Part shown: positions 1 to 5,044 of the stretch, piece by piece
How the letters are laid out: each line of letters opens with the position of its first letter
Position numbering within the stretch: the stretch's first letter is position 1
Origin: Escherichia coli
GTDB lineage: Bacteria; Pseudomonadota; Gammaproteobacteria; Enterobacterales; Enterobacteriaceae
Length of the DNA: 5,044 nt
Assembly (NCBI RefSeq): GCF_003334315.1
Contig: NZ_QOWR01000098.1
Direction: 5' to 3' (one strand)
The notes under the pieces: generated by a model
Seen by the model: only the letters and a program-made list of their open reading frames with translations
The model's database searches: none
Told to the model about the DNA's origin: nothing
Program-made: the position numbers and the translations under genes

Positions 1-650
<650 letters not shown>

Positions 651-694
651 TTACTCACAAATTGCCGGAAGTGATCCGGTATGAATATTGCGAG

Positions 695-1120
695 TCAATG
701 CACAGCCACAATATTTCCTGCAGGGCCACCACGATTCATCTGGTTGAAACCAGCGATCGCCACTGCGACAAAATCATCAGCGTCTCTCACCAGTCGTTCC
801 CGCGTCTCCACTAGTTCCCGAAAATAGGCTGAGCTATGGCTGCGCATTCGGGCCACCAGCAGAGGTGGCATTGCTTTTTCGATAGCTGGTAACAACGCCT
901 GAATTTTTTCAACTGCATCAGGGGTGTCTTTCTCTACCCAGCGGAAAATTTTCTGGGTATTGCGAGCCAGGGCTTCCGGATGGCTGTCGTCATACAGTTC
1001 TGGGAACGTCATACCCAGTTCAAAATAAGCCCTGGTTATTTCAGCTGCCGGAACTTTTTCACCGTCCGGATGCGCCCAGGCATTCATCGCCATGCGGATG
1101 TGTTCATGCTTGATTTTCAT
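695..1120 (-). CDS. ydaT: YdaT-like protein (CII-type regulator of Rac-like prophages)
   Basis: 141-aa minus-strand ORF beginning MKIKHEHI, with ATG at 1120-1118 preceded by AGGAG at 8-nt spacing. It overlaps the 3' end of the upstream ydaS-like gene by 17 bp, the arrangement expected for the ydaS-ydaT pair. Identity rests on remembered sequence similarity and synteny. Confidence 0.7.
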   Translation of the reverse strand: MKIKHEHIRMAMNAWAHPDGEKVPAAEITRAYFELGMTFPELYDDSHPEALARNTQKIFRWVEKDTPDAVEKIQALLPAIEKAMPPLLVARMRSHSSAYFRELVETRERLVRDADDFVAVAIAGFNQMNRGGPAGNIVAVH

Positions 1121-1385
1121 GAATCAAGCTCCTAGAAAGTGGTTGTGTTAACATTTTGGTATCTTCCAGCTCGGGCCAAATATTCATCCAATCAAAAGGC
1201 CTTAGTTGCTGACGTGTAACTTCACCATTACTGGCTCGCTCAATAAGGACACATAACGATGCCCCTAACACTTGACCTTTACTCAATGCCTTTCTTAGAT
1301 AACCGATGCTGGTACCACACTCGCATGCAAACATACGCTGTTCATCTGACGAAAGAGAATTGAGAAATATTCTTAATTCTTCCAT
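1104..1385 (-). CDS. ydaS: Cro/CI-type HTH DNA-binding protein, YdaS-like
   Basis: 93-aa minus-strand ORF with ATG at 1385-1383 preceded by TAAGGAGTAGCT (AGGAG about 7 nt upstream). It is divergent from the repressor gene across a 100-bp operator region and is followed by overlapping ydaT. The length differs from my recollection of K-12 YdaS (about 98 aa), so this may be an allelic variant. Confidence 0.6.
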   Translation of the reverse strand: MEELRIFLNSLSSDEQRMFACECGTSIGYLRKALSKGQVLGASLCVLIERASNGEVTRQQLRPFDWMNIWPELEDTKMLTQPLSRSLIHENQA

Positions 1386-1415
1386 AGCTACTCCTTAGTA
1401 AACACAGCAAAGAAC

Positions 1416-1490
1416 ACCCATAGGTAAACAAAAGTCAATACCCACAGGTTGTTTACCTTGCAGTAATCGCATCTATTATTTACCTATGGA
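1416..1490. promoter_or_regulatory. Divergent control region between ydaS and racR with three operator-like sites sharing the core AGGTAAA / CCATAGGTAAA
   Basis: Site A is ccataggtaaacaa at 1418-1432. Site B is its reverse complement ttgtttacct at 1449-1458. Site C is tttacctatgg at 1479-1489 (reverse complement ccataggtaaa), overlapping the racR ATG. On the minus strand a -35-like TTGACT (plus 1433-1438) faces ydaS, and a TATTAT -10-like hexamer at 1474-1479 faces racR. Confidence 0.55.
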
Positions 1491-1905
1491 CAAATATGAA
1501 TTTAGACGACAGCAACTCATCAAAATTCGTGATGAGAAATGCGATGGTAAAGCGGTTAACGTGGCCAGAAAGATCGGGCGCGAGCCTTCTTATGTATCAA
1601 GAATGTTGTACCCAGAGGGGAAAAAGGGAAAAAAACGGATCGCTGATGATATGGTGGAGATTATCGAAGAGTCCTTTGGGTTACCCCGGGGATGGATGGA
1701 TGGTATCGTTTCATCATCAACGAACACAGCCTCCAGTTATGAAACAAGGGTTCTAACGCCACGACAACGTATTTTTTTAGATCTCTTAGACGAACTGCCA
1801 GAAAGTGAAGCGGATAACTTATTAAAAACTCTTGAAGAGAAAAAACAGTATTACAATATGATCTACGAAGAAATCCGTAAAAAGAAAGCACAAAACGCAT
1901 CATAG
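1486..1905 (+). CDS. racR: Prophage repressor, RacR-like HTH protein
   Basis: 139-aa ORF divergent from ydaS, in the position of the immunity repressor. There is no in-frame upstream start (in-frame TAA at 1399-1401) and no Shine-Dalgarno before ATG 1486. Operator-like sites flank the gene on both sides. The length differs from my recollection of K-12 RacR (158 aa), so I call it RacR-like. Confidence 0.6.
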   Translation: MDKYEFRRQQLIKIRDEKCDGKAVNVARKIGREPSYVSRMLYPEGKKGKKRIADDMVEIIEESFGLPRGWMDGIVSSSTNTASSYETRVLTPRQRIFLDLLDELPESEADNLLKTLEEKKQYYNMIYEEIRKKKAQNAS

Positions 1906-1950
1906 CTCACCAAACAACTAGTCACCAGTTAAGACACCGCAAAAAGTTAC

Positions 1951-1981
1951 CCATGGGTATTTACTTTTTAAATACCTATGG
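1951..1981. promoter_or_regulatory. Imperfect palindrome ccatgggtattta / taaatacctatgg downstream of racR; operator-like and related to the sites upstream of racR
   Basis: Half-sites at 1951-1963 and 1969-1981 are inverted copies (12 of 13 match) and share CCATrGGTA with sites A and C. The overlapping hexamers TTTACT (1960-1965) and TATCCT (1983-1988) could form a rightward promoter towards ydaG/ydaF. Confidence 0.45.
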
Positions 1982-2159
1982 GTATCCTTCTTTTCATACC
2001 AACCCACCCCGCCCCACAGAATGCAGGGCAATACTTCGAGTTACCAGGCAGTGGTCAGGGGTTAAGTAGCCAGCCCGAGGCGTAAGAACATGACGGCGGG
2101 ATTCAAATTTTGCAGTGCAGCAGTTAGTTCCGCCACCCGGCGTTAAGGGGAGAGATAAG

Positions 2160-2294
2160 ATGGTGCATTACGAAGTAGTTCAGTATTTGATGGATTGTTG
2201 CGGTATCACTTACAACCAGGCTGTGCAGGCTTTACGCAGCAACGACTGGGATCTCTGGCAGGCAGAAGTCGCTATACGTAGCAACAAGATGTGA
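2160..2294 (+). CDS. ydaG: Small Rac-prophage protein, YdaG-like (44 aa), function unknown
   Basis: ATG at 2160 is preceded by AAGGGGAGAG. The translation is MVHYEVVQYLMDCCGITYNQAVQALRSNDWDLWQAEVAIRSNKM with TGA at 2292-2294. It is absent from the ORF track because of its size. Length and position match my recollection of ydaG between racR and ydaF. Confidence 0.55.
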   Translation: MVHYEVVQYLMDCCGITYNQAVQALRSNDWDLWQAEVAIRSNKM

Positions 2295-2304
2295 GATTCG
2301 CAAA

Positions 2305-2460
2305 ATGCAAAAAATCGACCTCGGCAACAACGAATCCCTGGTGTGCGGCGTGTTCCCCAACCAGGATGGAACGTTCACTGCCATGACGTATACCAAAAGC
2401 AAAACATTTAAAACCGAAACTGGTGCGCGCCGATGGTTGGAGAAGCACACAGTAAGCTAA
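2305..2460 (+). CDS. ydaF: Small Rac-prophage protein, YdaF-like (51 aa), function unknown
   Basis: ATG at 2305 with a weak Shine-Dalgarno. The translation is MQKIDLGNNESLVCGVFPNQDGTFTAMTYTKSKTFKTETGARRWLEKHTVS with TAA at 2458-2460. Its 3' end overlaps the convergent sieB stop by 4 bp. Confidence 0.55.
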   Translation: MQKIDLGNNESLVCGVFPNQDGTFTAMTYTKSKTFKTETGARRWLEKHTVS

Positions 2461-2945
2461 CGATTAAAACGTCTACTCCTGCTGTTCCAGAATAACTTCA
2501 TAAAATGGGAGTATTTTTCGGTGACGAGATAATAAGAACAGTTTGCGCTATCACTCTGATGTTGAATGATGCCCTTCCGTTCTAATTTTTTCATAACCGG
2601 GTTACGGCAAGGAGAAGTGATAATAAGATTTCCTGTTTTAAGGAAATCTTTAAATACAGCGATTTCTTTCTCAGATAAACGAAGCAATACTCGTTGCTCT
2701 GGTAGTAATGAATAATGCTTTTGAATATGTGCTCGCAATCTTGAGAAGGAAATGGCGACCACGAAAGAAAAGGCAAAAACGATAATCTGAAAGAGCCAAG
2801 GCATTTCAGTATAAGCATTGAATGCGACAGTAAACTCTTTCGGTATCAGCCAGAGAGTGAGACCAAAAATGATAATCGTATACATAAGTCTTTCGAGTGG
2901 CTCGTTAGCAAAAAGTTTCAACAATGGAGTAAATACATCCAACAT
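2457..2945 (-). CDS. sieB: Superinfection exclusion protein SieB (162 aa, membrane protein)
   Basis: This is the C-terminal 162 codons of track ORF 2457..3371, starting at ATG 2945-2943 (MLDVFTPLLKLFANEPLERLMYTIIIFGLTLWLIPKEF...), with GAGAG about 8 nt upstream. The hydrophobic N-terminal half is consistent with a membrane protein. The upstream 142 codons of the track ORF are antisense to recE and are rejected. Confidence 0.8.
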   Translation of the reverse strand: MLDVFTPLLKLFANEPLERLMYTIIIFGLTLWLIPKEFTVAFNAYTEMPWLFQIIVFAFSFVVAISFSRLRAHIQKHYSLLPEQRVLLRLSEKEIAVFKDFLKTGNLIITSPCRNPVMKKLERKGIIQHQSDSANCSYYLVTEKYSHFMKLFWNSRSRRFNR

Positions 2946-3093
2946 ATCAATAACTCTCAACTGTAAGGGTATTGAAATGTTAACACAAGCTCTCGCTGTA
3001 GGGGTATAGCCGAGACCACCGAAGCCCGGAGGTGGTGAAATAAAACCGGGCACAACACGAAGGCGCATTTCCGATATCCATAAAGAGTCGGTC

Positions 3094-4188
3094 TTGTCTG
3101 TTAAATTTAAATGGTGGAGTGCGCCTCCGGTTGTAAATAACGACATTGCTGTGTGTAGTCCTGGCGGCATCAGTTTTTTTCTTGAAGTTCGGCTGATGTC
3201 CGCCCTTTTTAAAGTGAATTTTGTGATGCGGTGGGTTGAAGCTAAGGAAAATGATCCGGAGGAAATGGAAGGCGCTGAACATCCGCACAATGAGAATGCT
3301 GGCAGCGATCCGCATCGCGATTGCAGTGATGAAACTGGCGAAGTCGCAGATCCCGTAATCGTAGAAGACATAGAGCCAGGTATTTATTACGGAATTTCGA
3401 ATGAGAATTACCACGCGGGTCCCGGTATCAGTAAGTCTCAGCTCGATGACATTGCTGATACTCCGGCACTATATTTGTGGCGTAAAAATGCCCCCGTGGA
3501 CACCACAAAGACAAAAACGCTCGATTTAGGAACTGCTTTCCACTGCCGGGTACTTGAACCGGAAGAATTCAGTAACCGCTTTATCGTAGCACCTGAATTT
3601 AACCGCCGTACAAACGCCGGAAAAGAAGAAGAGAAAGCGTTTCTGATGGAATGCGCAAGCACAGGAAAAACGGTTATCACTGCGGAAGAAGGCCGGAAAA
3701 TTGAACTCATGTATCAAAGCGTTATGGCTTTGCCGCTGGGGCAATGGCTTGTTGAAAGCGCCGGACACGCTGAATCATCAATTTACTGGGAAGATCCTGA
3801 AACAGGAATTTTGTGTCGGTGCCGTCCGGACAAAATTATCCCTGAATTTCACTGGATCATGGACGTGAAAACTACGGCGGATATTCAACGATTCAAAACC
3901 GCTTATTACGACTACCGCTATCACGTTCAGGATGCATTCTACAGTGACGGTTATGAAGCACAGTTTGGAGTGCAGCCAACTTTCGTTTTTCTGGTTGCCA
4001 GCACAACTATTGAATGCGGACGTTATCCGGTTGAAATTTTCATGATGGGCGAAGAAGCAAAACTGGCAGGTCAACAGGAATATCACCGCAATCTGCGAAC
4101 CCTGTCTGACTGCCTGAATACCGATGAATGGCCAGCTATTAAGACATTATCACTGCCCCGCTGGGCTAAGGAATATGCAAATGACTAA
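3094..4188 (+). CDS. recE: Exodeoxyribonuclease VIII (RecE), N-terminally truncated: only the C-terminal exonuclease-domain portion is present
   Basis: The translation contains [35 protein letters not shown] ... [10 protein letters not shown], which I recognise as the C-terminal region of Rac RecE. The stop at 4186-4188 overlaps the recT start, as in the native recET operon. The reading frame is open from 3010. The track start at 3094 is TTG; the first in-frame ATGs are at 3196 and 3226 and neither has a good Shine-Dalgarno, so the true start, if any, is uncertain. Confidence 0.8.
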
Positions 4189-4867
4189 GCAACCACCAAT
4201 CGCAAAAGCCGATCTGCAAAAAACCCAGGGAAACCGTGCACCAGCAGCAGTTAAAAATAGCGACGTGATTAGTTTTATTAACCAGCCATCAATGAAAGAG
4301 CAACTGGCAGCAGCTCTTCCACGCCATATGACGGCTGAACGTATGATCCGTATCGCCACCACAGAAATTCGTAAAGTTCCGGCGTTAGGAAACTGTGACA
4401 CTATGAGTTTTGTCAGTGCGATCGTACAGTGTTCACAGCTCGGACTTGAGCCAGGTAGCGCCCTCGGTCATGCATATTTACTGCCTTTTGGTAATAAAAA
4501 CGAAAAGAGCGGTAAAAAGAACGTTCAGCTAATCATTGGCTATCGCGGCATGATTGATCTGGCTCGCCGTTCTGGTCAAATCGCCAGCCTGTCAGCCCGT
4601 GTTGTCCGTGAAGGTGACGAGTTTAGCTTCGAATTTGGCCTTGATGAAAAGTTAATACACCGCCCGGGAGAAAACGAAGATGCCCCGGTTACCCACGTCT
4701 ATGCTGTCGCAAGACTGAAAGACGGAGGTACTCAGTTTGAAGTTATGACGCGCAAACAGATTGAGCTGGTGCGCAGCCTGAGTAAAGCTGGTAATAACGG
4801 GCCGTGGGTAACTCACTGGGAAGAAATGGCAAAGAAAACGGGTGATGATGCCAACTTACTGATTTAG
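4181..4867 (+). pseudogene. recT: recT (RecT single-strand annealing recombinase) interrupted by IS1 after codon 220
   Basis: ATG at 4181 is preceded by AAGGAA. The translation [35 protein letters not shown] ... THWEEMAKKT matches RecT as I remember it. From 4841 the frame runs into the IS1 terminal sequence, adding GDDANLLI before a stop at 4865-4867. The track ORF start at 4124 is a spurious upstream extension. Confidence 0.85.
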
Positions 4868-5044
4868 TGTATGATGGTGTTTTTGAGGTGCTCCAGTGGC
4901 TTCTGTTTCTATCAGCTGTCCCTCCTGTTCAGCTACTGACGGGGTGGTGCGTAACGGCAAAAGCACCGCCGGACATCAGCGCTATCTCTGCTCTCACTGC
5001 CGTAAAACATGGCAACTGCAGTTCACTTACACCGCTTCTCAACC
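4841..5044 (+). mobile_element. IS1 insertion sequence, left end (IRL plus the first ~200 bp); continues past the window edge
   Basis: ggtgatgatgccaacttactgatttagtgtatgatggtgtttttgaggtgctccagtggcttctgtttctatcagctgtccc... matches the IS1 left terminal inverted repeat and the insA leader as I remember them, with one mismatch in the IR (GAT where I recall GCT). The exact junction is ambiguous by about 1 bp. Confidence 0.9.
4896..5044 (+). CDS. insA: IS1 InsA (transposition regulator / N-terminal transposase part), 5' partial
   Basis: GTG at 4896 is preceded by GAGGTG. The translation is [49 protein letters not shown], the InsA zinc-finger-like N-terminus. It is truncated by the window end. Confidence 0.85.

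Follow-up and report, generated by a model that had tools for sequence, protein, structure and literature searches.

An IS1 left end joined to recT of a Rac prophage in Escherichia coli: a probable recT pseudogene of a small lineage

The stretch of DNA analysed here (the window) comprises 5,044 bp and corresponds to the complete draft contig QOWR01000098.1 of the E. coli assembly GCA_003334315.1. It carries part of a Rac prophage and shares with the Rac recET region of E. coli K-12 the overlapping stop and start codons of recE and recT and the location downstream of sieB. At its right-hand end, the contig runs 204 nt into an IS1 element and stops there. The features of interest are, from left to right:

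3233/3234, no strand: deletion junction private to this genome; 2,641 bp are gone (kilR, ydaE, racC and recE codons 1-549)
3234-4188, plus strand: recE remnant, residues 550-866; matches BL12 L002 8798-9752
4181-4840, plus strand: recT codons 1-220 of the Rac prophage, an intact frame ending in ...WEEMAKKT
4841-4867, plus strand: read-through of the recT frame into IS1, GDDANLLI (8 foreign codons) followed by TAG
4841-5044, plus strand: left end of IS1, of which 204 nt are present before the contig ends; left inverted repeat (IRL) at 4841-4863
4848-4875, plus strand: promoter-like site inside the IRL, upstream of insA, ATGCCA-16-TATGAT, called by a consensus scan only
4896-5044, plus strand: 5' part of insA with GTG start and zinc-ribbon domain (PF03811, NF050000, NF033558), cut by the contig end

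In the list of open reading frames, the recT frame is open from 4124 to 4867. Its ATG start codon at 4181 overlaps the recE stop codon as ATGA, and the TAG at 4865-4867 closes the frame. Across the junction it reads ...GAA GAA ATG GCA AAG AAA ACG / GGT GAT GAT GCC AAC TTA CTG ATT TAG, the slash marking the border between recT and IS1. One base at this border is ambiguous, as the next base of recT and the first base of IS1 are both G. The predicted product consists of 228 residues, namely RecT 1-220 followed by GDDANLLI. Codons 1-220 encode exactly the protein sequence of the 269-residue RecT of BL12, with a single synonymous base difference at 4225, and residues 1-220 are also identical to those of the common Rac allele of RecT, the protein known from the Rac prophage of E. 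coli K-12 (269 residues; PRK09846, PF03837). Compared with the K-12 protein, the window RecT is devoid of residues 221-269, that is, half of helix alpha3 and the C-terminal tail, and carries the eight IS1-encoded residues instead. The 49 lost residues are AIRRLFKYLPVS...NSEE (in full, AIRRLFKYLPVSIEIQRAVSMDEKEPLTIDPADSSVLTGEYSVIDNSEE), replaced by GDDANLLI and the stop codon. An earlier note on this DNA had described recT as intact for 220 codons up to WEEMAKKT, had attributed eight foreign codons and a stop to the IS1 left inverted repeat beginning at 4841, and had put the loss at about 49 C-terminal residues; our reading of the frame, the translation and the comparison with BL12 agree with it on all of these points.

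The comparison with an uninterrupted recT that the same note had proposed is provided by BL12. Together with its relatives, BL12 represents the empty site, ...AAGAAAACG/GCTATTCGT, and its RecT protein is identical up to codon 220. The BL12 Rac prophage is 100% identical to window positions 78-3233 and shows one synonymous difference over 3234-4841. Apart from the 2,641-bp deletion, the window is thus collinear with BL12 Rac from 78 to 4841, at 99.9-100% identity. The gene order of this Rac region, sieB, kilR, ydaE, racC, recE, recT, ralR, rcbA, xisR and intR beside ttcA, is covered by the contig as far as recT codon 220. Positions 1-77 of the window have no match in the otherwise near-identical Rac prophages of BL12-type complete genomes. 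The long contigs (the window and the sister contigs L003 and L004) all end within approximately 70 nt of each other there, inside a ydaU-like replisome-organiser gene, and this edge looks like a mosaic or repeat boundary common to other lambdoid prophages.

In profile searches, residues 1-220 covered positions 1-219 of the 275 positions of the NCBIfam RecT equivalog PRK09846, with 386 bits against a cutoff of 296, and profile positions 220-275 were absent from the window recT. The truncated product has been deposited in GenBank as E. coli RecT (RCQ21649.1 and TFA74615.1). Since it bears the plain RecT name, annotation-based counts of 'recombinase-positive' strains would overcount.

The DNA following codon 220 belongs to IS1, as the earlier note had recognised. 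The IRL GGTGATGaTGCCAACTTACTGAT at 4841-4863 matches the IS1 terminal repeat GGTGATGCTGCCAACTTACTGAT in 22 of 23 bases, the mismatch being at nt 8. Over its 204 nt, the element is identical to the IS1 of sister contig L003 (204/204) and matches the IS1A copy of L008 in 203/204 positions; the one difference is a C-to-A exchange at IS1 nt 8 (window 4848). The insA GTG at 4896 lies about 56 nt from the left end of IS1, and 4896-5043 matched the N-terminus of the IS1 transposase in NCBIfam (NF050000, 42.8 bits against a cutoff of 28). Sister contig L003 contains 663 nt of IS1, with a complete 91-residue InsA, the TTTAAAAAAC motif and a match to the DDE domain PF03400. In IS1, a -1 frameshift at the A6C motif gives access to the insB' DDE transposase. 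Identity to IS1B and IS1A copies over IS1 nt 1-663 is approximately 98.3-99.4%. Thus, the window matches IS1 (IS1A/IS1B, 768 bp) in IRL, insA start and zinc ribbon, and in L003 the match continues through the remainder of insA into the beginning of the DDE part, whereas the exchange of C for A at nt 8 of the IRL is private to the element described here.

Several further observations concern this element. The nt 8 exchange was present in every contig with the recT junction and in none of five other IS1 copies compared. Nucleotide 8 (window 4848) is the first base of the -35-like hexamer returned by the promoter scan, and the promoter-like site at 4848-4875 matches the position of the insA promoter of IS1 and may correspond to it. 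An Rfam scan of the whole window gave no RNA family above threshold. At the very end of L003 (8123-8126), the sequence reads ...GGCACGG/ACAC instead of the ...GGCACGG/CTGG of IS1. This deviation of 4 nt may mark a second junction within the IS1 copy or may simply reflect faulty assembly at the contig end.

A contig that ends in an IS element cannot tell an insertion from an IS-bounded deletion. Assembly from short reads merges the numerous copies of IS1, which is why the window breaks off within the element. We inspected complete genomes that have an IS1 directly at recT or at the genes beside it:

2018-05-2CC: clean IS1 insertion approximately 75 bp downstream of recT; 9-bp target duplication GACAATGTT
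NDM1 (NZ_CP083888.1): recT cut after nt 662, IS1, then intR without its N-terminus; no target duplication
ET220 class (NZ_CP100981.1 and relatives): recT cut at nt 627-630, IS1, truncated intR; no target duplication
B19695: rcbA'::IS1::'intR; no target duplication
GPEC1446: ydaU'::IS1::'recT from nt 642 (mirror image); no target duplication

All three other independent IS1 junctions inside recT (NDM1, ET220 class and GPEC1446) border deletions, two extending to intR and one to ydaU. B19695 provides a fourth junction of the deletion type, in rcbA, and the one clean insertion encountered, that of 2018-05-2CC, does not interrupt recT. The recT'::IS1::'intR alleles of NDM1 and ET220 have IS1 in the same orientation as the window; its left end is joined to recT only 2 bp from the window site in NDM1 and about 30 bp from it in ET220. 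Their junction bases differ from those of the window, however, and their far side is a deletion into intR. The IS1 of NDM1 is a clearly different variant, with 57 differences in 667 nt. Owing to the different junction bases, and in NDM1 also to the different IS1 variant, both events are regarded as independent of that in the window.

The comparators favour an IS1-bounded deletion or rearrangement, in which DNA other than recT, such as an intR truncated at its 5' end, would come after IS1, and the recT 3' end, ralR, rcbA and xisR would be lost. This architecture is known from NDM1, the ET220 class, B19695 and GPEC1446, in each case without a target duplication. Reif and Saedler are said to have characterised IS1 in 1975 as a classical generator of adjacent deletions. 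The comparators are nevertheless other and probably older events, and they amount to a sample of three or four. On balance, we give the deletion an even chance of being the correct reading, perhaps slightly better than that.

A simple insertion, to which we assign somewhat less than an even chance, would place the 768-bp IS1 in recT, flanked by a 9-bp duplication (AAGAAAACG) and followed by the recT 3' remnant, ralR, rcbA, xisR and intR. If this is what happened, and we hold that to be a serious possibility short of evens, the right junction would be composed of the IS1 right end, AAGAAAACG and GCTATTCGTCGC..., that is, ...GTTGGAGTCATTACC/AAGAAAACGGCTATTCG. Simple insertion is the primary product of IS1, and 2018-05-2CC offers a clean example with the duplication GACAATGTT. 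Moreover, the flanks are near-identical to those of the intact relative (one synonymous difference), pointing to a recent event with little time for a secondary deletion. Against this stand the other recT-internal IS1 junctions of complete genomes, three out of three of which are without duplication and border deletions, and the fact that every contig with the junction ends in IS1. Nor did the complete genomes and metagenome contigs searched contain the predicted right junction: a chimeric query of IS1 right end, AAGAAAACG and recT gave just two full-coverage matches in complete genomes, both of them other events, and the scan of metagenome contigs gave no match. A search for open reading frames across the hypothetical right junction returned none with a usable start codon or length. 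The earlier note had itself named, as the outcome that would contradict it, that this is not a simple insertion; judged by the comparators, that outcome appears no less likely than a simple insertion.

The comparison also bears on how often IS elements invade this region. A Rac-type recT is present in 1,749 of 5,426 complete E. coli genomes, and in several IS-rich lineages among the complete genomes IS1 or IS3 truncates recE or recT. The 5' end of recE is truncated by an inverted IS1B in ET220 (L009 377-1144) and by IS3 in 2018-05-2CC (L008 982-2144). Because such truncations of recE by IS1B or IS3 occur in other IS-rich lineages, IS erosion of the Rac recET region is recurrent. A 36-bp stretch of recT accommodates four independent junctions with IS1, which has the same orientation in each; they lie at nt 627-630 (ET220 class), 642 (GPEC1446), 660 (the lineage of the window) and 662 (NDM1). 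The cluster, recT nt 627-662, corresponds to window 4807-4842 (L009 4208, L011 6201, L001 6244), and two of its junctions, separated by just 2 bp, were formed by clearly distinct variants of IS1. Breakpoint records, which are few and do not represent independent events, came from 11 complete genomes in recT nt 560-700 and from 4 in an equal-sized control interval, nt 300-440. We consider it unlikely, though worth stating, that recT nt 627-662 is a regional IS1 hot spot and that IS1-driven loss of the arm from recT to intR is a recurrent way to disable recombination and to lock Rac in the chromosome.

Whichever event created the junction, the 228-residue product has to be judged against what is known of RecT proteins. 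The copy of the PDB that we searched contained no solved structure of E. coli RecT itself. The only solved relative is LiRecT, a RecT from a Listeria innocua prophage (7UB2), which is a distant homologue (E = 1.8e-14). The pairwise alignment sets WEEMAKKT/AIRRLFKYLP of E. coli RecT against YDAMAKKT VLRNMLSKWGI of LiRecT, whose numbering was corrected for a 3-residue offset of the deposited chain. In this alignment, the break comes directly after K219 and T220, which pair with LiRecT K206 and T207, and the lost residues R223, R224, K227, Y228 and P230 pair with LiRecT R210, N211, K215, W216 and I218. In LiRecT, K206, R210, N211 and K215 of helix alpha3 provide the contacts holding the inner DNA strand, and W216 and I218 are subunit-interface residues (PMC9772228). 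The LiRecT double mutants R210A/K215A, K206A/R210A, K206A/K215A and K215A/W216A have lost DNA binding (PMC9772228). Past the core, the C-terminal region is believed to serve as the docking site for SSB and the partner exonuclease (PMC9772228, PMC11611040).

The Pfam RecT domain (PF03837) of full-length RecT comprises residues 53-244. Because this domain runs to residue 244 and the alignment puts the break in alpha3, the cut is predicted to lie inside helix alpha3 of the conserved RecT core and not behind it. The window RecT lacks the complete core fold including alpha3 as well as the C-terminal region, and the window recT is, as far as its sequence allows classification, a pseudogene of the RecT/Red-beta family rather than a functional member. 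With the second half of alpha3, its inner-strand contacts and the interface residues absent, the truncated product should neither bind nor anneal DNA properly. Nor should it work with RecE, because the C-terminal tail, thought to be the partner-binding part, is missing as well. A loss of RecT function is thus a well-supported prediction, and the assessment in the earlier note that the RecET module is probably inactive gains, as far as RecT is concerned, well-founded backing from the structural homology to LiRecT and the published mutants.

The closest parallel is Red-beta 1-177. Like the window RecT, it is an annealase without the C-terminal partner-binding region, and it cannot support recombination (PMC5052646). 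Red-beta 1-177, however, has its DNA-binding core in full and remains able to anneal, whereas in the window RecT alpha3 itself is cut. This difference speaks against the idea that the truncated RecT has been kept for a useful activity, such as binding of single-stranded DNA or a dominant-negative or regulatory role. Residues 1-220 are unchanged, the overlapping stop and start codons of recE and recT are intact, and Red-beta without its C-terminal domain anneals while giving no recombination (PMC5052646). Yet the cut inside a core helix sets the window RecT apart from Red-beta(1-177), and the flanks are near-identical to those of intact relatives, so that the lesion looks recent and conservation says nothing on selection. 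We therefore regard a retained activity as very improbable.

The same recT::IS1 junction, including the base at nt 8, was recovered in approximately 11 contigs by exact look-up of the 228-residue product. All of them are shorter than 10 kb and end inside IS1. They derive from the NCBI assemblies GCA_003334315.1, GCA_004380855.1 and GCA_004172665.1 and from Logan assemblies of at least two runs. Among 5,426 complete E. coli genomes the left junction did not occur, and a scan for its pattern gave no match in metagenome contigs or viral contigs. It is hardly conceivable that the join is a chimeric artefact of a short-read draft contig ending in a repeat, with recT intact in the cell, given that three NCBI assemblies and Logan assemblies of at least two runs arrived independently at the identical junction and that the junction copy is marked by its private base at IS1 nt 8, thanks to which Logan contig L007 reaches 38 nt into IS1. 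Because the same junction and nt 8 base were assembled in approximately 11 contigs, the join is not a chimera; it is real and clonally inherited in a small E. coli lineage. Contig L006 extends into IS1 by 26 nt. With k assumed to be 31, the length of L007 would fit an assembly in which the nt 8 base is unique to the junction copy.

The sister contigs also disclose the order of events. The segment missing at 3233/3234 corresponds to BL12 L002 6157-8797 and extends from the sieB-kilR spacer to recE codon 549. The junction is blunt, without microhomology. It was found in 0 of 5,426 complete genomes and is absent from sister contigs L003, L004 and L006. On either side of it, L003 and L004 match the window at 100% identity; they keep the 2,641 bp and with them a recE of 866 codons, and carry the same recT::IS1. 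Since the recT lesion is thus combined with an intact 866-residue RecE in these contigs, the IS1 event came first, and the deletion is later and private. The lesions in recE and recT are separate events.

The recE remnant aligns with positions 561-877 of the 877 positions of the NCBIfam exoVIII profile, holds the whole RecE nuclease domain (564-866) and is in frame with an upstream open reading frame that has ATG codons at 3196 and 3226. Because the nuclease domain is kept, the deletion is not clearly inactivating for recE. It is not clearly a hit on recombination either, because kilR, ydaE and racC go too, and the killing gene kilR is an equally plausible target of selection for the deletion. 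The earlier note had seen independent inactivating hits on recE and recT. Their independence is borne out by the intact recE of L003 and L004; that the hit on recE was inactivating is not clear, as residues 550-866 are kept. The remnant is similar to the truncated RecE employed in recombineering and to the recE gene-fusion suppressors of K-12. A 300-nt query across the deletion junction (3084-3383) matched 4,355 of 5,426 genomes, at up to 14 places per genome, compared with approximately 1,750 genomes with a Rac recT. The repeated part of this query may be the 150 bp left of the junction (3084-3233, the sieB-kilR spacer).

Taken together, we propose that the left end of an IS1 of the IS1A/IS1B type became joined to the Rac recT right after codon 220, that recT would thereby have become a pseudogene yielding a 228-residue product, and that a later 2.6-kb deletion would have eliminated, in this genome, the segment reaching from kilR into the 5' part of recE. 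The whole would amount to a cryptic prophage decaying neutrally in a strain rich in IS1. We hold this explanation as a whole, that is, an IS1-joined recT pseudogene as a clonal lesion that preceded the 2.6-kb deletion and most likely reflects neutral decay, with high confidence. Activity of the recET pathway in K-12 depends on activating sbcA mutations (PMC9504249). Because of this requirement, neutral decay is the most likely meaning, and the 'inactivation' of the recET module may be without phenotype, as the module is normally inactive in K-12.

The event is of an already known, ordinary kind, namely IS1 pseudogenisation of a cryptic-prophage gene. If the IS1 end borders a deletion into intR, Rac would no longer be able to excise in the lineage of the window. 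If the hot spot were true, IS1-rich E. coli lineages would repeatedly disable recombination and fix Rac in the chromosome. The biological weight of the finding itself is small: it adds another pseudogene made by an IS element, and the operon concerned depends on activating mutations for its function in K-12.
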